From the NCBI GenBank assembly GCA_021156165.1, contig JAJNBM010000003.1, forward strand, positions 1,817-65,816: a stretch of DNA of 64,000 nucleotides, given 5' to 3'. The DNA comes from Gammaproteobacteria bacterium (lineage in GTDB: Bacteria; Pseudomonadota; Gammaproteobacteria; UBA1113). Positions 3,353-63,193 of this stretch are shown here, in pieces (the first letter of the stretch is position 1; each line of letters begins with the position of its first letter). The notes under the pieces are model-generated. The model made no database searches. It had not been told where the DNA came from and saw only the letters and a list, made by a program, of their open reading frames with translations. The position numbers and the translations under genes were made by a program.

Positions 3353-3988
3353 TCAGCCCTGCGTCTTATCCGGATATTCACACCAATCGCGAATAATACA
3401 CTGCGCACAAAGCGGTTTCCTGGCTACACAGGTATAACGGCCATGCAAAATAAGCCAATGATGAGCATCATGTAAATAAGCTTTAGGTACAACTTTAAGT
3501 AAGTCCTTTTCGACGGCTAAAGGGGTGGTGCCTTGCGATAGGCCTATGCGCTTCGCTACTCTAAAAATATGTGTATCTACAGCAATAGTAGGTTCGCCAA
3601 AAGCGGTATTTAACACCACATTAGCTGTTTTACGACCTACACCCGGCAAGGCTTCCAGCGCCTCGCGGTTAGACGGCACTTCGCCTTGATGTCGTTCTAG
3701 CAGCAACGCACAAGTCTTAAGAATGTTCTTTGCCTTGGTTTGATATAACCCTATGCTTTTAATATAGGGTATTAACCCCTCTATGCCCAAATCTACGATA
3801 GCTTGTGGCGTATGCGCTACTGGGTATAGTTTGGCAGTGGCTTTATTCACGCTTACATCTGTAGCTTGTGCCGATAAAATCACAGAAACGAGCAATTCAA
3901 ACGGTGTTTGATAGCGCAACTCGGTAGTCGGCTTAGGATTGGCTTTAGCAAAAGCCTTAAATATTTTTTGAATGTTAGCCGCTAGCAT
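3353..3988 (-). CDS. nth: endonuclease III
   Basis: HhH-GPD motifs and the C-terminal 4Fe-4S Cys cluster CxxxxxxCxxCxxxxxC. Full-length match to Nth. Confidence 0.9.
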
Positions 3989-4562
3989 TAGGAGTGCTCT
4001 TTTTAGCCAAAACGCGTAGCCGTGCGGATTCTATATAATCGCGTTGCGCTTTTATAGAATCGGGGATACTTACTTTCTTAGCATCGCTCATTTTTTGTAA
4101 GCGTTCCTTTTTTGCGCCGTAATGTCGGCGTGCAGCGCTGGCGGGTATTTTTTTTTCAGATGAAACTGCCATCATGCTGATACAGTCTGTAGGGCAGGGT
4201 AATAAGCACAATTCACAGCCAGTACAAACATCGGGTAATACGGTATGCATCATTTTAGCGCTGCCCACGATAGCCTCGACAGGGCAGGCCGTAATGCATT
4301 TTAAGCATCCTATGCAATAAGCTTCATCGATAACTGCAACACTAGGCGGGCGATAACGTTGCTGCACTTCCTGGCGATACGGCGTCGCATCTACCCCCAT
4401 TAATTTTGCCAAAGCTTCTAAGGTCTCAACGCCTCCCGGAGCGCACTGCGCAATATCCGCTTCGCCACGTGCTATCGCTTCGGCATAAGGTAAACAGGCC
4501 GCATAACCGCATTCTTGGCATTGAGTCTGTGGCAATACCGCATCTATATCCTTGATGCGCAT
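3975..4562 (-). CDS. rnfB: RnfB/RsxB-like 4Fe-4S ferredoxin, standalone
   Basis: N-terminal CxxCGxxxC and two CxxCxxCxxxCP ferredoxin motifs, collinear with E. coli RsxB. No other rnf genes are in the window. Confidence 0.7.
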
Positions 4563-26977: not shown

Positions 26978-27262
<285 letters not shown>

Positions 27263-27327
27263 GCAGTATTGTGGAAGAAAATAAAAGGTCTGTCAAGATG
27301 TATACCACTCGGCTTAGAATTATGGCA

Positions 27328-35763: not shown

Positions 35764-38700
35764 ATGCGTTCACTCAAGCGTCTTGGCGAAAAACAACGTA
35801 TTTTTTTAGAGGGAGTTATTATAATGAAAGATGATGAGACAATAAAAGCGTTAGAGTCTGAAATTTTAGAACGAGATAATATAATTCAGGACCAAAAAAT
35901 AAAAATTGATCAGCTTTTTAATATTATAAATACCATTCCTGGTAGCGTATATTGGAAAGACTTAACCGGCCGTTATCTTGGTTGTAATGACTATCAAAAA
36001 AACATGAATGGTGGCAGAGACTTAATTGGCCTAAAAGATAATGAACTGCCCTGGGCTGAAAAAGTAGCTGAAATAAGAAAAAACGATGACGCTGTTATTT
36101 CTACGGGTGCTATTCTAGAATTTGAAGAACACCCTATTTTAGCCAGCGGCGAGCGCATTACTACGTTAACCCGCAAAGCACCTCTATATAATAAGGACAA
36201 AGATATAATTGGGGTCCTTGGAATTTCTCTAGATATTAGTGGTAGAGAAAAAAGTATTCAAAATATTATTCGCGAAAAAAACGTTTTAAAAGAAGAAAAG
36301 GAATTTATAGAATCAACCTTAAGCAATATAGTCGCCGATATGCCTGGGCATGTGTATTGGAAAAATAGAGAGGGTGTTTATCTGGGGTGTAATGATAGAC
36401 AGGCAAAAAGCCTAGGGTTTAATTCGGGCAAAGGTGTCATTGGCAAGACAGACTTTGATTTATCATGGGGGTCTAGTATTGCTGAAAATTTTAGGGAAAA
36501 TGACTTGTTAGTGATGAATACGCAGTGTATGCACACCGTAGAAGAAGATACCACTATAGACGGCGTAAAGAGGACTATGTTAAGCCAAAAAACGCCTCTT
36601 AAAGATAATAAGGGTAATATTGTAGGTGTTCTTGGTATCTCTATAGAGATTACAAGGTTAAAAAACATACAAGAGGAACTTGTACGCGCCAAAGAAAAAG
36701 CCGAAGCCGCTAACAAAGCAAAAACAGAATTTGTGCAAAACATGCAGCACGATATACGCACGCCCTGTGCAGGTCTTTGGGGCGTGTTGAACATACTAGC
36801 CAAAGCAGAAGAAGATCACAACAAAAAAGAAGCGTTAGACATGGCTGCTGCAGCGAGTAAAAAGCTTTTAGAACTATGCAATGAAGCAGTTGAATTCGGT
36901 GATTTGAGCAGCAATGTAAGGCCTGTACTTGAAAAAGCGCTAAATATACGTGAATTGGCGGAATCGATAGTTGAACTTAATAAACCAGCCGCTTTTGCTA
37001 AAGATCTGCTCATTCACTTTAAGGTGGATGCTTCAATACCCGCCCAAATCCTCTGCGATGAATTTCGCTTGAGCCGTATCCTCGTTAATTTAATGGGCAA
37101 TGCGTTAAAATTCACTAATAAAGGCGAAGTCGCTTTAAATCTCAAGGCCGAAGTAGATAAAGAGACACACCGCGGCTGGTTAACCCTAGAAATAAAGGAC
37201 ACGGGTATAGGCATTCCTGCAGACAAAATTAAGACTATTTATGAGAAATTTAGTCGTGCGGTGGCTTCTAATACCAACTTGTATCCCGGAACCGGTTTAG
37301 GTTTGTATGTGGTAAAAACTTTTGTGGATGAGCTAAACGGCAACATTGAGCTTGAAAGCCGTGAAAATGAAGGAACTTCGTTTAAAGTGGGCATTCCTTT
37401 TAAAGTTCGTTGGGAGGATATGAAAAAACCAGGCGTAGAAATTGACGAATATTTCAGATCGCCGATTGATCTGACCGCTGAAGTAACACAAAACCCAGAA
37501 GCAATTTTCCAAAAGACATCTCTAGCGAAAAAGCCATTTACTCATACGCTTTTAATTATCGAAGATGATAAAACCTGCCTTTTTGCGGAAAAGAATTTAT
37601 TGTCTACTTATACCAACCAGATTGATGTTGCGGAAAATGTAGCCGAAGCCTTAGAGAAATTAGCCACTAAACGATATGATTTAGTGATTTCTGATCTGGG
37701 TTTGCCAGATGGTTCCGGTAACGATATTGTCGCCAAGGTCAAAGCCACCCCAGAATCGGCGAACTATAACACCCCTTTTGTAGCGATGACGGCCCACCAA
37801 GACGCTTTAAAACATCAACAGGCGATGAAGGCGGGTTTTACAGCAACTCACATTAAACCTTTAGGTGCCGAAAAAGCGGTAGAGCTTTTAAAGTCTTATC
37901 CAGCGCAGGAATCTGGAATCTCACCTCAGGAAGTTATTATCTCTCCTAAAGTAGAAGGTAAACCCGTAATCGATTTGGCTTTAGGAAGGCAACGGATCGC
38001 AGCCAATAATGAAGAGCAAGCGATAGAAGCGCTAGGTGTTTTATGGGAAACTCTGCAAATAGATATCCCCCTATTGCAACTTGCAGCAGAAAATAACGAC
38101 CTTGCAGGGGCAAACGCTATTTTACTTAAGATACGCGGCGGCTTATATTACACTGGTACACCCCGCTTAGAGGAAGCCTGTGAGGTGTTGCATACAGAGG
38201 TAGGGCGCGGTGTTAAAGATTTGAGAAAAATTCATAGTTTATTTTCTGCGTTTTATGATGAGGCAAAACTATTTGCGGAGCAATTTAAAGAGCTAGTGAA
38301 GGGCGTGAATGCACAAAAAGAAGCTGAACATTTAAGAATGGTAAATGAAAAGCAAAAAGCACTGTTAGAACAGGAGGCAAAATTCACTCAAATAGCCAAT
38401 CAAGTCGCACATGATATACGCTCACCACTGGCCACTTTATCTATGATCGTGGAATCCTGCACACACATTCCGGAAACCCAGCGCCTCGCTTTAAGAGAAG
38501 CAGCCATCGGCATAGAAGATATTGCCAATCACCTACTCCATGAATATAAAAAAAAAGGCTCAGATGAAGTTACAGAGCATGAGGCATGTCACCCCCTCTT
38601 AGTGTCTGCTGCTTTGCTAGAATCCTTAACCCATAAAAAATATCAATACGACAAGTGCCCCATTCAGTTTGATTGCACAATGGCCCTCAATGCCCAATTT

Positions 38701-39792
38701 GCCTTTATTAAAATACAAGCCAGTGCTTTTAAGCGGATGTTGTCTAATTTAATGAACAATGCGGTAGATGCGCTTGAAGGTCAACCTGGAACAATTCATT
38801 TACATTTAGAAGCCGACACTGAATCGGTGAAAGTACATATTCAAGATAGTGGCAAAGGCATGCCAGCGGATGTGGCAGACAAGATCTTACATAAAATCGC
38901 TATAACGCAAGGTAAAAAATTAGGTCATGGCTTAGGATTTACTCAGGTGCGGGAAGCCTTGGAGCACAATCAAGGCGAATTAGAAATTGATTCTAAACTC
39001 GGTGTAGGCACGACAATCACCCTCTCTTTTCCTAGAACCAGCGCTCCACAGTGGGTAGCGCAAGAGATAGTATTAAACCCTGATGATACCCTTATTATCT
39101 TGGATGATGATAGCTCTATACATGGTGCTTGGGACACCCGTTTTGAGCCCCTGTTAAATAAAAACCCAGAGCTGCAATTAAAGCATTTTCAATTTGGCAG
39201 GGAAACGCTGGCATTTATCCAAAGATTAACACCCGCTGAAAAAGAGCACATTTTTCTGCTCTCGGATTATGAATTATTGAATCAAGAATATAATGGCTTA
39301 ACGATCATTGCGAAAAGCGGTATACAACGCTCTATTTTAGTCACTAGCCATTATGCCGATCCAGAGGTACAAGCAGAAGCTGTAAAAGCGGGCACTAAAA
39401 TTTTACCTAAACAATTGGCCGCTGAAGTGGTAATTAAAATAAATGATAGAGATGAAGTTACATCCGAAAAAGTGTATGCCGTTCTTGTAGACGATCATCC
39501 CGGCTTTACTAAAGCATTAGCACTCTATGCTTTCGATGACGATCAAATCACAGCTGAATACAATAATCCAGAACATCTTTTAAGAGATCTGGACAAATAC
39601 GCCAAAAACACCAAAATCTATTTGGATAATAATTATGCCACTTCAAAATTAACCGGTATAGAAGTAGCTAAAAAATTACATGAACAAGGCTATACGCATT
39701 TATATATCCTATCGGGCGAGTCAGCCTTAGAGGCACCCTCTTATGTAACCGTCATTGGAAAAAACGAAATAGAACGTATAAAAGATTTGTAG
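35764..39792 (+). CDS. multi-domain hybrid sensor histidine kinase (2 PAS, two kinase cores, receiver domains)
   Basis: Two PAS blocks; H-box MQHDIRTP with HATPase NLMGNALKF...GTGLGLY; REC with LVISDLGLPDG; second H-box VAHDIRSPL with NLMNNAVDA...GHGLGF; two further REC-like domains. Confidence 0.85.
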   Translation: MRSLKRLGEKQRIFLEGVIIMKDDETIKALESEILERDNIIQDQKIKIDQLFNIINTIPGSVYWKDLTGRYLGCNDYQKNMNGGRDLIGLKDNELPWAEKVAEIRKNDDAVISTGAILEFEEHPILASGERITTLTRKAPLYNKDKDIIGVLGISLDISGREKSIQNIIREKNVLKEEKEFIESTLSNIVADMPGHVYWKNREGVYLGCNDRQAKSLGFNSGKGVIGKTDFDLSWGSSIAENFRENDLLVMNTQCMHTVEEDTTIDGVKRTMLSQKTPLKDNKGNIVGVLGISIEITRLKNIQEELVRAKEKAEAANKAKTEFVQNMQHDIRTPCAGLWGVLNILAKAEEDHNKKEALDMAAAASKKLLELCNEAVEFGDLSSNVRPVLEKALNIRELAESIVELNKPAAFAKDLLIHFKVDASIPAQILCDEFRLSRILVNLMGNALKFTNKGEVALNLKAEVDKETHRGWLTLEIKDTGIGIPADKIKTIYEKFSRAVASNTNLYPGTGLGLYVVKTFVDELNGNIELESRENEGTSFKVGIPFKVRWEDMKKPGVEIDEYFRSPIDLTAEVTQNPEAIFQKTSLAKKPFTHTLLIIEDDKTCLFAEKNLLSTYTNQIDVAENVAEALEKLATKRYDLVISDLGLPDGSGNDIVAKVKATPESANYNTPFVAMTAHQDALKHQQAMKAGFTATHIKPLGAEKAVELLKSYPAQESGISPQEVIISPKVEGKPVIDLALGRQRIAANNEEQAIEALGVLWETLQIDIPLLQLAAENNDLAGANAILLKIRGGLYYTGTPRLEEACEVLHTEVGRGVKDLRKIHSLFSAFYDEAKLFAEQFKELVKGVNAQKEAEHLRMVNEKQKALLEQEAKFTQIANQVAHDIRSPLATLSMIVESCTHIPETQRLALREAAIGIEDIANHLLHEYKKKGSDEVTEHEACHPLLVSAALLESLTHKKYQYDKCPIQFDCTMALNAQFAFIKIQASAFKRMLSNLMNNAVDALEGQPGTIHLHLEADTESVKVHIQDSGKGMPADVADKILHKIAITQGKKLGHGLGFTQVREALEHNQGELEIDSKLGVGTTITLSFPRTSAPQWVAQEIVLNPDDTLIILDDDSSIHGAWDTRFEPLLNKNPELQLKHFQFGRETLAFIQRLTPAEKEHIFLLSDYELLNQEYNGLTIIAKSGIQRSILVTSHYADPEVQAEAVKAGTKILPKQLAAEVVIKINDRDEVTSEKVYAVLVDDHPGFTKALALYAFDDDQITAEYNNPEHLLRDLDKYAKNTKIYLDNNYATSKLTGIEVAKKLHEQGYTHLYILSGESALEAPSYVTVIGKNEIERIKDL

Positions 39793-44654: not shown

Positions 44655-44768
44655 ATGGTAGTTTGCCTATCCATTTGCGACAGTACGCTGCAAACCCCGC
44701 CAGACTCGGAAGAGAGCAACGGTAGTGGTTGAATTGTGTGCAGATTGTGGTGGGTGAACTGCCCTCCT
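44655..44768 (+). ncRNA. ffs: signal recognition particle RNA (4.5S, small type), immediately upstream of dnaX
   Basis: CCAGACUC-GGAA-GAGAGCAACGG matches the domain IV GNRA tetraloop and asymmetric loop (E. coli CCAGGUCC-GGAA-GGAAGCAGCC). Flanking arms pair. The ends are approximate. Confidence 0.5.
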
Positions 44769-44780
44769 TGAATAGAAACG

Positions 44781-45902
44781 GTGCATACTATGCCAAATCA
44801 TGTATTAGCGCGTAAATGGCGTCCCCAATCCTTTACAGAAGTCATAGGCCAAGCTGCTATTGTGCAGGCTTTAACCCATGCTTTGGAAAGCGGTCGTTTG
44901 CACCATGCGTATTTATTCAGCGGTACACGCGGCATAGGCAAAACCTCTCTGGCTAGATTATTGGCAAAATGCTTGTCCTGTGAAAAAGGACCCACAGCTA
45001 CACCCTGTGGTCAATGTCATCCCTGTTTAACCATAGCGCAAGGCAATTATCTAGATCTATTAGAAATCGACGCGGCTTCTCGTACCAAGGTTGAAGACAC
45101 CCGCGAACTCTTAGAAAGTGTGCAATATCCTCCTATTATGGGCCGTTATAAAATTATTTTAATCGATGAAGTGCATATGCTCTCTGGCCACAGCTTTAAT
45201 GCCTTATTAAAAACACTCGAAGAACCGCCCAAACACGTTATCTTCTTGCTGGCCACTACCGAACCTGAAAAGTTGCCGAATACCGTTTTATCGCGTTGTT
45301 TACATTTCACCTTAAAACCACTGACCAACGACGTCTTAAGCGAGCATTTTAATCACATTTTACAACGAGAGCATATTCGCTTTGACCCTAATGCGCTCAC
45401 TTTAATTGCTAAAGCTGCTTGCGGCAGCGTACGCGATGGTTTAAGCCTATTGGAACGGTGCATCGCCTTTTGTGGCAGTGATATCACCGTGGCTAAAATC
45501 AGCGAATTATTAGGCCTAGCCGACAGCCATACTGTACAGCAGCTATTAGATACCTTAATAAAAAATGACGCGGTCAGTGGATTAACACTCATTCGTGCTT
45601 TAGCCGAGAAAGGCGCTGATTTTAGTGGGGTATTAGAAGCTTTTATCGAATTATTACATCAATTGGCTTTACAACAGGTATTACAAAAAGACAATCCTAC
45701 CCTTCTTAGCGCCGAACGCATACAGTTGTATTATCAAATTGCCTTAATAGGACGGCGCGATCTGCCGCTTGCCCCTGATCCGCAGATGGGCTTTGAAATG
45801 CTCTACATCCGCTTATTGTCCTTTCAACCTTGGCATGAAGAAAATGAGGTGCTTCCTGTTGTAAAAAAAAAACTTTCAATCCCCGCGATGAATCCAATAT
45901 AA
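44781..45902 (+). CDS. dnaX: DNA polymerase III gamma-length product (domains I-III) in the zero frame
   Basis: Walker A GTRGIGKTS and zinc module CxxCxxC. The zero frame stops 9 codons after an A10 run at 45863-45872. Confidence 0.9.
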   Translation: MHTMPNHVLARKWRPQSFTEVIGQAAIVQALTHALESGRLHHAYLFSGTRGIGKTSLARLLAKCLSCEKGPTATPCGQCHPCLTIAQGNYLDLLEIDAASRTKVEDTRELLESVQYPPIMGRYKIILIDEVHMLSGHSFNALLKTLEEPPKHVIFLLATTEPEKLPNTVLSRCLHFTLKPLTNDVLSEHFNHILQREHIRFDPNALTLIAKAACGSVRDGLSLLERCIAFCGSDITVAKISELLGLADSHTVQQLLDTLIKNDAVSGLTLIRALAEKGADFSGVLEAFIELLHQLALQQVLQKDNPTLLSAERIQLYYQIALIGRRDLPLAPDPQMGFEMLYIRLLSFQPWHEENEVLPVVKKKLSIPAMNPI

Positions 45903-46285
45903 ACTGGAATGAACTGTATCCTCAACTTAACTTAAATGGTTTATGTGCTGTGTTAGCAAACCATTGCGCCTTAATCAGCACCCTAGATAATCATTGGCAT
46001 TTTGCACTGAACCAAGAACACAGCGCCTTACACGATAAACAGCAAGAAACTCTTTTGGCTAAAGCCTTAAGCACCCATTTCAATACAACCATACAGGTTT
46101 CTATTGAAATGGTCACCGAGGCTATTACGACCCCAGAAAAAGCCCAGCGCCAAAAGGCAGAGGCGTCTCTAGCCACTGCCCACCGCTCCCTACAAGAAAA
46201 CCCCCGCTTTAGGCAGATTATGGAACAATTTCGTGCTACAATAGTTCCCGGCTCAATAACGAGCCTAGAACAAGACGAGGTTTAA
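45848..46285 (+). CDS. dnaX: tau-specific C-terminal segment of DnaX, in the -1 frame relative to 44781
   Basis: The -1 frame is open from 45848 through the A10 run. It encodes NWNELYPQLNLNGLCAVLANHC...NPRFRQIMEQFRATIVPGS, which is collinear with tau C-termini. Confidence 0.7.
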   Translation, partial: GASCCKKKTFNPRDESNINWNELYPQLNLNGLCAVLANHCALISTLDNHWHFALNQEHSALHDKQQETLLAKALSTHFNTTIQVSIEMVTEAITTPEKAQRQKAEASLATAHRSLQENPRFRQIMEQFRATIVPGSITSLEQDEV

Positions 46286-46288
46286 ACA

Positions 46289-46636
46289 ATGAGCGATAAT
46301 TTATCAAAATTAATGCAACAAGCGAAAGATTTACAAGCCAATATGAAAAAGGCCCAAGAAGAACTCGCTGCTATGATAATAGTCGGCGCGGCTGGCGGTG
46401 ATATGGTACAAGTCTCTTTAAACGGTTTACATTACTGTAAAAAAATCCTAATTAACGCCACTGCTGTGCCCGGCATGACCCCTGAAAACATTAAGTTATT
46501 GGAAGTCATGATCGCAGCCGCTATCAATGATGCGACGGCCAAAATTGAAAAACGCTCACGCGAGAAACTATCTGCGCTTGCGGGCAATTTGGGATCGCTG
46601 CCTGAAGGCTTTGGTGGCATGGGTGACGGTGCTTAA
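46289..46636 (+). CDS. ybaB: nucleoid-associated protein YbaB/EbfC
   Basis: 115 aa. Conserved position directly after dnaX. Confidence 0.9.
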   Translation: MSDNLSKLMQQAKDLQANMKKAQEELAAMIIVGAAGGDMVQVSLNGLHYCKKILINATAVPGMTPENIKLLEVMIAAAINDATAKIEKRSREKLSALAGNLGSLPEGFGGMGDGA

Positions 46637-46869: not shown

Positions 46870-47475
46870 GTGGTTACGATGAGTTTTAGCCCGCTAATAG
46901 ACAAATTGATAGCCCAATTGCGTTTTTTACCGGGCGTAGGACCAAAATCGGCCCAGCGCATGGCCTTTCAATTATTAGCGCGCAATCGCCCGGCTGGTAA
47001 ACAATTGGCTGAAGCCTTACTTGCAGCTATGAATGAAGTCGGGCATTGCGATCTGTGTCGTACATTCAGTGAAAGCGCGCGCTGTCAATTATGTGCTAAT
47101 CCTAGGCGCGATCACCGTTTATTGTGTGTAGTTGAATCGCCAGCCGATCTACTGGCCATAGAGCAAACTGGTTTTCATGGCTTATATTTTGTGTTAATGG
47201 GTCATCTATCGCCCTTAGATGGTATTGGTCCAGAACAATTGGGGCTAGGGTTATTAAAACAAAGATTTCAAAGCGAAGACATAGGCGAATTGATCATCGC
47301 CACTAATCCCACCGTAGAAGGCGAAGCAACGGCCCATTACATACACGAATTAAGTCTGCCTTATTCCTTGCGGGTTACACGTATTGCCCATGGCGTGCCC
47401 TTAGGCGGAGAATTGGAATTCATTGACGGCGGCACTTTAGCACGGGCATTAGCCAGCCGCGAAACTTTGGCATAA
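46870..47475 (+). CDS. recR: recombination protein RecR
   Basis: HhH motif [11 protein letters not shown]4 zinc finger and Toprim domain. Confidence 0.95.
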
Positions 47476-55981: not shown

Positions 55982-56066
55982 TGGTGCCGAAGGCCGGACT
56001 CGAACCGGCACGGCTTTCGCCACTGCCCCCTCAAGACAGCGTGTCTACCAATTCCACCACTTCGGC
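55982..56066 (-). tRNA. tRNA-Leu (anticodon GAG)
   Basis: Class II tRNA with a long variable arm. Anticodon loop TTGAGGG; encoded CCA. Confidence 0.9.
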
Positions 56067-59470: not shown

Positions 59471-59546
59471 GGTGCGCCCGGAGAGATTCGAACTCCCGAC
59501 ACCCTGGTTCGAAGCCAGGTACTCTATCCAACTGAGCTACGGGCGC
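59471..59546 (-). tRNA. tRNA-Arg (anticodon UCG)
   Basis: Cloverleaf close to E. coli tRNA-Arg. Anticodon loop CTTCGAA; encoded CCA. Confidence 0.9.
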
Positions 59547-59590: not shown

Positions 59591-62500
59591 TTACCCCAAT
59601 TTAACAGGGCTCCTCCTCATCTCTGAAATCGCCTCAGTTGTACGGGATGTTCTATTATCATTTGCATACTGAAGCACTGTTTCTGCATCTGCATTTTCTG
59701 GCCATTTCGCACTCAAAGGATTTGAGAAAAATGAAAGTCGTTTATTATAAGAAGGTAAAAAATCCCTCATCCATTGTGTTTTGATCTCTTTCATTTGTTT
59801 CCATTTTAATAACTCACCCACAGCAACAATATCAGAATAATTATAAATCAATTTAGCCAATTGGCCCGTTTCTATCATACGGGCCACAATAAGCTCAAAA
59901 ATATTTTTGTTTTCATTCAAGATCCTTGCAAGATTGATAAAATCATCGACACTGGAAATCCATAGTAAGTTACTATCATTTATACCCAGCAGGCCTGAAA
60001 AAAATTCAGTTTGCTGAGTGGGGGTAAGCCAAGCGGCTAATGCTGTGAGTGCGTAGCCACAAGGGTTTCCTAGAATAGAAACTTTTATCTCTTCAAATAT
60101 TTCAGTACGTTGTTGAACGCGTAGATGCTCCATGATATGATTGAAAACCATTTTATTCAATGGCTCAGAATTAATCATATTTATTAGTGCCGACTTCATA
60201 ACATTAAAAATGATAGATTGCTGTTCAGGATAAAAATACGGGCAGTTATTCGCCTCACCACCCATCCATTTTGAAAATACCTCAGGACACTTAATAATCT
60301 CCGGTAATACGTGGGTAATGGCATAAAGGCCATAAGTTACAGTTTTCTCATCTTGCGCTGAAAAATAAGTGGGAGAGTTAATGATCTCTCTAAGTCTACT
60401 ATTTATTATAGCTTCTTTTTGGTATCGTCCATTTTCGTCTAAAAAAGAGAGGGCTATGGGAATAAGGTAAACAGTAGCGGGATCCCTTAAATATGGCAGC
60501 AATTTTTCATCCATATTATCGTTATGCACTGCTTCTAAAATATATTTAAAAGGTAGCAGTTCCATAAGGCATGCTTGAGTTTCCCTAACAAATATCTTTT
60601 GCTCCTCTTTCTCACATGCTAAAAACAAATCCATATAGCAGTCAAAGTAATCCTCCAACTCCTCCTCAAATAAGGTATTGAGACGTCCCTGTTGAGCCAA
60701 AATCAAAATAAATGGTATGAGAAATTTTTGAGGCATCCCCATCTTAAGGCCTTCTAAATCCTCCAATGACTCTATCAGCCCAGTTTGGGTTTCCAGAAAT
60801 TTTACAACGGATTCCTCGGACACTACTCCTTCAAGAATTCTTAATATTTCATATAACTCCCCCACGTGCTGTATTTTGCAGGATAGATCCTTCAAATGGG
60901 TTTCAATGATTTTTGCTTTTTGAGCCCGATCCAAGCCACTGATGAGAGAAATAAATTGAGAAGCTGAAGCGAGTCTGCTCATATCTATGATTTGGGTGAT
61001 TAGGAAATATCGTTTATCTGCGCTTAGCGGATCCATTAATGTAGAAAAAAAAATTTCTGGGTCCTGTGCTTCGTAAGGAGGAAACTTATAAAAAATCTCT
61101 TTGAAATAGCCACTCATCGCTGCACAGGCTATTTCAAATCGCTCATTATTGAGGGAATTTAAAGTAACGCCCATATTTTTTGGGTTTCTCCCCATGGCTG
61201 TAACAAACAAGTTTTCGGTAAGTTGAGAATTGAGATGCCCCTGTTGAGCCAAAATAAAAATAAATGGTATTAGAAATTTTTGAGGCATCCGTACCTTAAG
61301 GTTTTCTAAATTCGCAGGTGACTCTATCAGCCCAGGCAAATGGTCACTTTGGGCTTCCAGAAATTTTACAAATGACTCCTCTGACACCCCTTCTGGAATA
61401 ATTCTTAATATTTCATATAATTCCCTCGCGTGCTGTATTTTGGAGGATAGATCCTTCAAATGGGTTTCAATGATGTTTGCTCTTTGAACCAAATCCAAGC
61501 CACTGATGAGAGAAATAAATTGAGAAATTGAAGCAAGCCTATCCATGTCTAGGATTTTTTCAATTAAAAAATAGCGCTTGTCTGCACTGAGCGCACCCTT
61601 TAATGCAGAAAAAAATATGTGTGGGTTAAGATGGCTTGGGTCATAGGGAGGAACTTTATAAAAAATTTTTTTGAAATAATCACTCATCGCTACACAGGCT
61701 ATTTCAAATCGCTCATTATTTAAATAATTTAAAAGCATGCCCATTTTTTGGGGTTCTCTTTGCATGGTTGTGTCAAACAGTTCTTCGATAAATTGCGATA
61801 AGACAGCCCCTAGCATATCTGGTTTGCTTAAGAAAGCGAACGTGGCCAAGTCGGCATAAGCATTGATTGGATCCTTATTGAAAGCAATTACGATTTCGCT
61901 GCGGTAGATTTCATTTAGGCAGAGTACGTTGAAATCATCCACACTTAATAAGGTTAGGTCTTCAATATGAGCAATGCTAAACTTAACGCCTAAAGCATGG
62001 AGAAACTCAATACTTGGGATCTTAAGACTATCCACTCCCTTATAAGCAACAGAATTTTCTGTTTTTTCAACCAATATTTTCTGTGCTTCAGCTACTGCCT
62101 CCGTTGCATCTTTAATGAGTTCAATTTTGCTCTCTGCACTTAGGGTGATATTGGCTAAAGTTGCTTCATGCCCTCTCATTGCATCCGATAATACTTTTTG
62201 TCTGGTATCAATACAGGTCGTAACCGTAGGCTGTGGAACAATATTTCCCTCTGCAACCACTTGATTGTAGCGAGCTTCAGTTTTGTCCGTTATATTCAAT
62301 AAGAGATCAATTTGTGCCCGTACCAAGGGGGGAATATCATTTTTTTGTTCCGGAGTTAACTTGTCATAAAACTGCTGGAAATTAAGAATAAGGATATAAA
62401 CACCTTCACTTGCAGCACCTTCACTGCCTAGCCCCTGTTTACTGTGAAACCGCAGGCCTATTATAAGGGTATTAAGATGGCTCAGTAAATTGCTGCTATC

Positions 62501-63193
62501 GTTTGTGAGGGTGTCAAAGTGGCGTTTGGCTTCTATAACTGATCTGGTTTCAAAAGAATGTTGAAATAAACGGTGTTTTTCTTCTGCGTCCAAATAAGCC
62601 AAACCACCATCGCGAATGGCTGGATCATCGCTTTCATAATTATAATAGTGGTTACAAATATTTGTTTCCACAGCGGAAGGGGTTATTTGTATCAAAAATT
62701 TGACGGGTAACAAATACTTGCCATTACGATTGATAATATGCGTTTTTATTACCTGTTGAAGCGGTATGCTGTCTAAATCGGGATAAACTGAGCTATCCAC
62801 AGTCACCTGGGTTTGTATCCCTGGCATCAGTATATGGATGGGACTGGGACTAGTTTCAATGGGCACCCCTTCAGCAGGCTTTTTATTTTTTAAATTTTGA
62901 GCTATTTCGGTAGCAATATCACACAGCAGTTCGGTAACGGGGTCATCAGGCAATGCGGTATAGCCCACAGGGGAAAGACCATATTTTTTCCAATTTTCTG
63001 CTAAAAATATTTGTAAATCGGCTAATAGCTTTTCCTCATCATTACCCTTTTTTTCTATTATCTCCAGGAGAGCAGCCAATACTTCCTTACGATATGCAAG
63101 GATAATTTGTCCCCTTAAAGGGATAGGAGAAACGTCCTCAAGCCCTTTAAGTTGTTCAATTTTAAGCTTTAATTGATCTTGAATCGCTGCCAT
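59591..63193 (-). CDS. large (1200 aa) hypothetical protein with two tandem repeats of roughly 190 aa
   Basis: Uninterrupted 3.6-kb ORF. The repeated block NNERFEIAC...MPQKFLIPFI.ILAQQG occurs twice. Confidence 0.6.
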   Translation of the reverse strand: MAAIQDQLKLKIEQLKGLEDVSPIPLRGQIILAYRKEVLAALLEIIEKKGNDEEKLLADLQIFLAENWKKYGLSPVGYTALPDDPVTELLCDIATEIAQNLKNKKPAEGVPIETSPSPIHILMPGIQTQVTVDSSVYPDLDSIPLQQVIKTHIINRNGKYLLPVKFLIQITPSAVETNICNHYYNYESDDPAIRDGGLAYLDAEEKHRLFQHSFETRSVIEAKRHFDTLTNDSSNLLSHLNTLIIGLRFHSKQGLGSEGAASEGVYILILNFQQFYDKLTPEQKNDIPPLVRAQIDLLLNITDKTEARYNQVVAEGNIVPQPTVTTCIDTRQKVLSDAMRGHEATLANITLSAESKIELIKDATEAVAEAQKILVEKTENSVAYKGVDSLKIPSIEFLHALGVKFSIAHIEDLTLLSVDDFNVLCLNEIYRSEIVIAFNKDPINAYADLATFAFLSKPDMLGAVLSQFIEELFDTTMQREPQKMGMLLNYLNNERFEIACVAMSDYFKKIFYKVPPYDPSHLNPHIFFSALKGALSADKRYFLIEKILDMDRLASISQFISLISGLDLVQRANIIETHLKDLSSKIQHARELYEILRIIPEGVSEESFVKFLEAQSDHLPGLIESPANLENLKVRMPQKFLIPFIFILAQQGHLNSQLTENLFVTAMGRNPKNMGVTLNSLNNERFEIACAAMSGYFKEIFYKFPPYEAQDPEIFFSTLMDPLSADKRYFLITQIIDMSRLASASQFISLISGLDRAQKAKIIETHLKDLSCKIQHVGELYEILRILEGVVSEESVVKFLETQTGLIESLEDLEGLKMGMPQKFLIPFILILAQQGRLNTLFEEELEDYFDCYMDLFLACEKEEQKIFVRETQACLMELLPFKYILEAVHNDNMDEKLLPYLRDPATVYLIPIALSFLDENGRYQKEAIINSRLREIINSPTYFSAQDEKTVTYGLYAITHVLPEIIKCPEVFSKWMGGEANNCPYFYPEQQSIIFNVMKSALINMINSEPLNKMVFNHIMEHLRVQQRTEIFEEIKVSILGNPCGYALTALAAWLTPTQQTEFFSGLLGINDSNLLWISSVDDFINLARILNENKNIFELIVARMIETGQLAKLIYNYSDIVAVGELLKWKQMKEIKTQWMRDFLPSYNKRLSFFSNPLSAKWPENADAETVLQYANDNRTSRTTEAISEMRRSPVKLG
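60660..61770. repeat. tandem duplication of roughly 540-570 bp inside the 1200-aa gene
   Basis: ccctgttgagccaaaat(c/a)aaaataaatggtat at 60687 and 61228. gct(a/g)cacaggctatttcaaatcgctcattatt at 61121 and 61691. Confidence 0.5.

Follow-up and report, generated by a model that had tools for sequence, protein, structure and literature searches.

The dnaX gene in the 64-kb stretch of gammaproteobacterial DNA analyzed here (64,000 nucleotides; hereafter the window) is split between two overlapping reading frames at a run of ten A's (A10), such that standard decoding would yield a gamma-length protein and the longer tau protein would require a change of reading frame. We consider it likely that this run is an evolutionarily maintained recoding site, at which tau is most plausibly produced by RNA polymerase slippage that adds one A to the mRNA. 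Tau is an essential replisome subunit, whose domain V tethers alpha to the clamp loader, and this function needs covalent linkage of domain V to domains I–III. The anatomy of the gene, its conservation, the selection on domain V, and the lack both of a separate start and of conserved E. coli-type stimulators are directly shown by the sequences, whereas the occurrence of slippage, its level and its efficiency are inferred.

Direct reading shows exactly ten A's at positions 45863–45872 of the + strand (GT_A AAA AAA AAA C), and no other homopolymer in the window (41% GC) is as long. In frame 0, the gene reads GTT GTA AAA AAA AAA CTT TCA ATC CCC GCG ATG AAT CCA ATA TAA, and its product ends in PVVKKKLSIPAMNPI at a TAA codon (45900–45902) nine codons past the run; read in the tau frame, part of this stop belongs to an ATA (Ile) codon. 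The −1 frame is shut upstream by a TGA (45845–45847), is open from 45848 and continues to a TAA at 46283–46285 (145 codons plus stop). The frame change must therefore fall between this TGA and position 45899; the permitted interval is ~55 nucleotides (nt), since the −1 frame becomes open 12–21 nt ahead of the run and the frame-0 stop lies 27 nt beyond it, and at every locus that we compared this interval includes the run. Joining the two frames by way of an A11 mRNA, an A8 mRNA or a −1 ribosomal slip yields VVKKKTFNPRDESNINWNELY in each case. The start codon is probably the ATG at 44790 (MPNHVLARKW..., with an equivalent in relatives) rather than the GTG at 44781; from this ATG, gamma would have 370 aa and tau 498 aa.

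Profile searches assigned the two parts of the gene to the two parts of DnaX. The first open reading frame (ORF1, 44790–45902; domains I–III plus the nine-residue tail; identical to protein P0001) matched Pfam DNA_pol3_delta2, DNAX_ATPase_lid and DNA_pol3_gamma3 (residues 1–350) as well as NCBIfam TIGR02397 (dnaX_nterm, 404 bits). The −1 segment, searched alone, matched Pfam PF12170 (the alpha-binding domain V of tau; 49.5 bits compared to a cutoff of 28.8, E = 6e-13) as well as the C-terminal ends of several NCBIfam gamma/tau equivalogs; the tau-specific part (45872–46285) consists of a short linker and domain V. The A10 lies exactly at the domain III/V boundary. A lone A10 would be no surprise by chance in 64 kb of DNA with this GC content (41%), but its placement at this boundary, the change of frame there and its conservation in relatives go far beyond chance.

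Much of this layout had been put forward in an initial annotation of the window. Its placement of the A10 and of a frame-0 stop nine codons later was borne out, the two motifs that it quoted do lie in the −1 frame, and the collinearity of that frame with tau C-termini was upheld by the PF12170 match above the cutoff. It was right about the end of the zero-frame ORF (45902) and less probably so about its start (44781), and the −1 frame does run from 45848 through the A-run, with 145 codons plus stop rather than the 146 aa it gave. Its central proposal, that standard decoding gives a gamma-length product and that tau needs a −1 shift or an extra A, gains support from the PF12170 match and from the purifying selection and missing start codons described below.

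We fetched the DNA of relatives for protein-search matches and for GTDB species representatives, all of which are metagenome-assembled genomes labelled Gammaproteobacteria bacterium or Proteobacteria bacterium. A query with the conceptual fused protein returned eleven distinct relatives with 76–99% identity, each ~370 aa long and each ending nine residues past KKK, and the nearest continuous tau proteins were just 66% and 56% identical to the query. Domain V was in the −1 frame in 12 of 12 distinct loci (window included; 76–100% protein identity); comparison of A-run length in these orthologous dnaX genes, as the initial annotation had proposed, gave A10 in 11 and A11 in one. The run is kept in these 12 loci despite a synonymous divergence (dS) of about 1, and it is invariant although the preceding codon varies (GTA, TTA or CTA). 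The A11 lineage (L041, 3567–3577; L042, 3221–3231) has a C-to-A substitution just after the run; domain V is still in the −1 frame there, behind a longer linker (~158 nt). Independent sample pairs agree exactly on run length (L041/L042, L043/L044 and L048/L049), and the window sequence itself recurs with A10 at 100% identity over 3.5–4.1 kb in JGI 3300042904 and Logan SRR35179664 (A10 reproduced in loci L051 and L052). In a collection of 5.8 billion proteins, the close homologues of domain V were all orphan ORFs of 84–136 aa, and none was an in-frame version; a scan of metagenome contigs returned distant dnaX genes only.

Thus, both the position and the direction of the shift are conserved, with 12 of 13 lineages needing −1 at the same run. 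The exception is L004, in which the run is A9 and domain V lies at +1. This locus is 93% identical in DNA to L003 and comes from a single contig at 2.9x coverage, and its 90% cluster contains nine distinct proteins, eight of them of the A10 type. We consider L004 a probable assembly error or rare variant, and we down-weighted it as evidence for frame-agnostic slippage in view of its coverage and its A10-type cluster mates.

Selection has acted on domain V in the shifted frame. Across the 13 split loci, the median ratio of nonsynonymous to synonymous divergence (dN/dS) for domain V is 0.137, its median dS is 1.36 and it has zero internal stops; domains I–III have a dN/dS of 0.086 in the same comparison. 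Domain V is under purifying selection, and a dead remnant is excluded because the domain is intact despite near-saturating synonymous divergence; on the dN/dS and the stop-free frame, we ruled out a pseudogene. Moreover, the −1 frame lacks an ATG, GTG or TTG upstream of the conserved domain V start in 10 of the 13 split lineages, which rules out an independent start in most loci; the loci without one include the window, L001–L003, L040 and L043–L047. Thus, since most loci have no start codon ahead of domain V, tau must come from recoding.

The end of the short product is conserved as well. The frame-0 stop falls exactly nine residues past KKK in 12 of 12 loci of the −1 type, and it overlaps a tau-frame ATA in 11 of them and a CTA in one, where ATA accounts for 32% of the Ile codons in these genes; the tau-frame codon after this ATA or CTA always begins with A or G. 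These observations point to selection on the stop position of the short product. In addition, both non-tau frames stop 1–28 nt past the run at every locus, the third frame within 1–17 nt, and thus every non-tau reading gives a gamma-length protein. In the window these stops come 17 and 28 nt after the A10, and the TGA of the +1 frame (45889–45891) would end the product of an A9 or A12 mRNA at ...KKNFQSPR, which is again gamma-length.

We propose that translation of the unedited mRNA would produce a 370-aa gamma-like clamp-loader subunit, ending at the conserved stop nine codons past the run. RNA polymerase would slip on the T10 of its template strand and insert one nontemplated A, giving an A11 mRNA that reads GTA AAA AAA AAA ACT TTC..., such that a fraction of expression events would move to the −1 frame at the run and produce the 498-aa tau, the subunit that tethers the polymerase core. 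Transcripts that slipped into the third frame would end quickly and also give a gamma-length protein. The identical protein would result if tRNA-Lys slipped in tandem by −1 on A_AAA_AAA, and such events may contribute.

We searched for stimulators of the type found in E. coli dnaX with single-sequence folds (60 nt downstream and 45 nt upstream of the run in 16 loci), a scan for duplexes with the anti-Shine–Dalgarno (anti-SD) sequence, and an Rfam scan by E-value. We found no conserved hairpin in either segment: neither folds more stably than shuffled sequence (z about 0), the loci share no structure, and the minimum free energy of the downstream 60 nt ranges from −0.6 to −10.3 kcal/mol across loci. 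The window has an SD-like GAGGTG (45846–45851) 11 nt 5′ of the run, with an anti-SD duplex of −9.2 kcal/mol, but we found no conserved SD-like element in the relatives (−0.1 to −6.1 kcal/mol, at variable spacing), and this lone occurrence is probably no stimulator. The Rfam scan of 45600–46200 at E ≤ 10 returned no frameshift element and only one chance snoRNA match. Thus, we rejected E. coli-type stimulators, and RNA polymerase slippage is the most likely source of tau because nothing conserved of that type was found. Transcriptional slippage is further favored because all ten A's are conserved where seven would be enough for a ribosomal slip, because, as in Thermus, a stop shuts each alternative frame soon after the run (here within 28 nt), and because the Thermus gene and the two-ORF genes of Antonov et al., both discussed below, provide precedents.

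Alternatively, the same maintained two-ORF gene might make tau mainly by −1 programmed ribosomal frameshifting, with a tandem slip of tRNA-Lys on A_AAA_AAA of the unedited A10 mRNA, a possibility that we take seriously but hold to be a minority one. In frame 0 the A10 contains two overlapping A_AAA_AAA heptamers, with the same phase in all split loci, and both the −1 direction in 12 of 13 lineages and the GAGGTG in the window would suit such an event. Moreover, E. coli dnaX uses −1 frameshifting at the homologous boundary, and some reversed dnaX genes have been treated as candidates for ribosomal frameshifting (Atkins et al. 2016, PMC5009743). On the other hand, we found no conserved SD-like element, downstream hairpin or Rfam match that would stimulate it; A_AAA_AAA is far less shift-prone in E. 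coli than A_AAA_AAG (PMC5009743), whereas an essential subunit would need high efficiency; and ribosomal slippage accounts neither for the three A's conserved beyond seven nor for the closure of both other frames near the run, which is as expected if mRNAs populate all frames. Nevertheless, several observations weigh against polymerase slippage at a maintained site. The run is phased as a classical X_XXY_YYZ −1 ribosomal shift would require, and the two mechanisms cannot be told apart from sequence. Runs of A or T of 7, 8, 9 and 10 nt occur 40, 10, 3 and 1 times in the window, which is about the fall-off expected by chance, and the three 9-nt runs are in frame in other genes; thus, nothing here hints at a polymerase that is unusually prone to slip at 9 nt, though a window of 64 kb makes for a very small sample. 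Finally, L004 breaks the strict −1 rule, and every locus is metagenome-assembled, some at low coverage.

The remaining alternatives fare worse. The split could be a tolerated frameshift mutation, that is, gene erosion rescued adventitiously by low-level slippage, which is how poly(A) frameshifts in dnaX of Blochmannia vafer and B. floridanus have been read (PMC3017870); furthermore, where a run already slips, altering it by one base could have almost no effect on fitness (PMC5009743). We consider erosion unlikely here, since the state persists in at least 12 lineages near synonymous saturation, domain V is strongly selected, the frame-0 stop stays in one place where codon usage would not predict it, and the ORFs of the window are dense and intact with no other gene split at a homopolymer; moreover, the site is the gamma/tau boundary itself, whereas that in Blochmannia is downstream of the boundary. 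Could domain V instead be translated separately from an internal start and act as a free protein? Gene callers do predict ORFs of 84–145 aa with PF12170 downstream of the short dnaX, but these calls are not credible because the start codons are missing in most lineages and the called starts differ between loci and cut off conserved residues, and tethering of alpha to the clamp loader demands the covalent link to domains I–III; we thus hold this reading to be very improbable. The two alternatives that the initial annotation had itself raised are more doubtful still. A homopolymer error in sequencing or assembly, with a continuous tau ORF at A11 or A8 as the true gene, has in its favor that long homopolymers are error-prone, that the loci are all from metagenome assemblies, and that L004 differs by one A from its relatives. 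It is contradicted by the identical A10 that three assemblies give for the window sequence, by at least 11 further distinct loci (76–88% protein identity) that share the layout, with A10 in 11 of 12 split lineages from unrelated projects, by the lack of any in-frame version in the protein collection, and by the other long homopolymers of the window (A9 twice, T9 and G8), which sit within uninterrupted long ORFs. Since replicate assemblies, conservation throughout the clade and these intact ORFs all speak against it, we ruled out sequencing error and conclude from the assembled sequences that the split dnaX is real. Likewise, we give almost no credence to phase variation of the DNA, in which subpopulations would differ in whether the tract leaves tau ON or OFF: replication can alter the length of an A10, and L004 does have A9, but tau is essential, so the OFF state would be lethal, and the consensus is A10 in every lineage other than L004 and in every replicate assembly, a constancy across species that makes a phase-variable tract implausible.

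The reversed polarity, which the initial annotation had implied to be novel, is real but had been published before. Two-ORF dnaX genes with an A10 that need recoding for tau were described by Antonov, Coakley, Atkins, Baranov and Borodovsky (2013, NAR 41:6514, PMC3711429) as GeneTack cluster COF_239165634, with transcriptional realignment as the proposed mechanism, and the finding was repeated in Atkins et al. (2016, PMC5009743). Their Supplementary Figure S3 (PMC3711429) gives nine A10 genes in Chlorobi, Bacteroidetes and Verrucomicrobia from seven genera (Chlorobium, Prosthecochloris, Pelodictyon, Flavobacterium, Cytophaga, Capnocytophaga and Coraliomargarita). No gammaproteobacterium is among these nine genes, and we found no description of this layout in Gammaproteobacteria in later literature. 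At the level of sequence, the window dnaX has every feature by which this class is recognized: domains I–III in ORF1, the tau C-terminus in the −1 frame, an A10 at the junction and a frame-0 stop soon after, such that gamma would be the standard product and tau would require recoding. It differs in that the frame-0 stop is nine codons past the run at a conserved position, compared to 1–4 codons in the Antonov genes; in that C rather than G follows the run; and in that this clade consists of uncultured Gammaproteobacteria, with the flip bracketed by outgroups that have in-frame A9 or A10 runs. Thus, the window dnaX apparently represents a new and independent gammaproteobacterial lineage of the published reversed dnaX, and it reveals no new mechanism.

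We also compared the locus with the two classical systems, for which the statements of the initial annotation, −1 frameshifting at A_AAA_AAG in E. coli and transcriptional slippage at A9 in Thermus, match the published accounts (PMC3711429, PMC5009743, PMC1088944). In Thermus thermophilus dnaX (Larsen et al. 2000), as here, an A run at the gamma/tau boundary serves to make two subunits from one gene, without elaborate stimulators and with stops close by in both alternative frames; the A9 run of Thermus gives about 50% slipped product (PMC1088944). In contrast, tau is the frame-0 product in Thermus and gamma comes from slipped transcripts, whereas here the polarity is reversed and the run is A10. 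The window thus shares with the Thermus type an A run of at least nine at the boundary and near stops in both alternative frames, but does not have tau in one continuous ORF. E. coli dnaX (A_AAA_AAG, an upstream SD and a downstream stem–loop) is similar in its boundary after domain III, its lysine-codon slippery site and the −1 direction. However, its shift yields gamma, whereas here frame 0 yields the short product, and its heptamer ends in G, whereas here A_AAA_AAA is followed by C and AAG is absent from all split loci. As judged by sequence features, then, the window fails to show what defines the E. coli cassette (AAG heptamer, conserved SD, stem–loop and gamma by shift).

Two further cases resemble this one in part. 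In Shigella flexneri mxiE (Penno et al.; PMC1088944), one nontemplated nucleotide at a 9-nt run fuses two overlapping ORFs into a longer functional product, but the gene is an unrelated transcription activator and its short product is not known as a functional subunit. The dnaX genes of Blochmannia vafer and B. floridanus (PMC3017870) are also gammaproteobacterial and also need poly(A) slippage for tau, but the site is in a tau-only region downstream of the gamma site and has been read as erosion in a reduced endosymbiont, not as a gamma/tau switch.

More distant relatives suggest how the polarity came to be reversed. In three outgroups, L005 (A10), L006 (A9) and L007 (two A9 runs), tau is continuous in frame 0, the run is at the same boundary, and near stops are found in both other frames, a Thermus-like layout. 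In L007 (63% identity), the in-frame A9 runs (4052–4060 and 4102–4110) are ~50 nt apart in the linker past domain III. Because these distant relatives keep A9 or A10 at this boundary and encode tau in frame 0, the polarity flipped within this lineage, probably one time, and the same runs suggest that slippage was already in use before the flip. In a neighbor-joining tree, L006 and L007 fall outside, and L005 joins the two split groups at an unresolved three-way node, a placement that weighs against this account in that it leaves a single origin of the flip undemonstrated. We tentatively entertain the broader view that the reversed gene arose independently in Gammaproteobacteria, beside sisters with in-frame A9 or A10 runs, and that its gamma stop has been selected by way of the disfavored ATA codon; the odds of the two together are, in our estimate, somewhat against. 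If the gamma stop is selected, selection would have favored the short subunit itself, with its defined tail, and this subunit would be no by-product. If polymerase slippage is near 50%, the DNA-encoded polarity of gamma and tau could flip almost neutrally; should the A9 of L004 be real, even sister species could drift apart in the frame relation that their DNA encodes.

These genes bring the reversed dnaX into Gammaproteobacteria, the very class whose member E. coli provided the classical frameshift, and the relatives with in-frame A9 or A10 and with out-of-frame A10 form a natural series that illustrates a predicted one-nucleotide swap of the subunit that depends on recoding. The conserved gamma stop adds comparative support for gamma as a functional product, and the locus would be a convenient test bed for polymerase compared to ribosomal slippage. 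There is also a consequence for annotation. At split loci, gene callers report a short "gamma/tau" protein and a "hypothetical protein", and therefore annotations of this clade appear to lack tau. One source names an orphan domain V ORF (P0139, from the cluster of such ORFs) "F0F1-type ATP synthase delta subunit", and other sources name theirs "hypothetical protein", misnamings that arise because dnaX is split.

The neighborhood of dnaX has the usual gene order ffs-dnaX-ybaB-recR, with dinB and an amidase gene farther upstream. Directly upstream lies ffs, encoding the small signal recognition particle RNA (44664–44759, + strand; Rfam RF00169, 59 bits compared to a gathering threshold of 40), and downstream on the + strand are ybaB (46289–46636; Pfam YbaB_DNA_bd, E = 2.6e-21) and recR (46870–47475; Pfam RecR_HhH, Toprim_4 and RecR_C).

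Elsewhere in the window, the 9-nt runs are found in three ORFs. An A9 at 38548–38556 is in frame in an ORF (35764–39792, + strand) for a 1342-aa hybrid histidine kinase with PAS, HisKA, HATPase_c, Response_reg and a second GHKL domain; this A9 is a potential slippage site, and the ORF is unbroken. A T9 on the + strand (4148–4156), which is A9 in the mRNA, is in frame in an ORF (3975–4562, − strand) for a 195-aa Fe-S/4Fe-4S dicluster protein. The third run, an in-frame A9 on the + strand (61045–61053) and U9 in the mRNA, lies in a 1200-aa ORF (59591–63193, − strand) with no Pfam match at E ≤ 1e-5. Among RNA features, three tandem tRNA genes lie within 300 nt (857–1147, + strand), single tRNA genes are found at 55985–56066 and 59473–59546 (both − strand), and an FMN riboswitch match (26978–27263, − strand; 92 bits) spans 286 nt compared to a model of 138 positions, which indicates an unusually large insertion.

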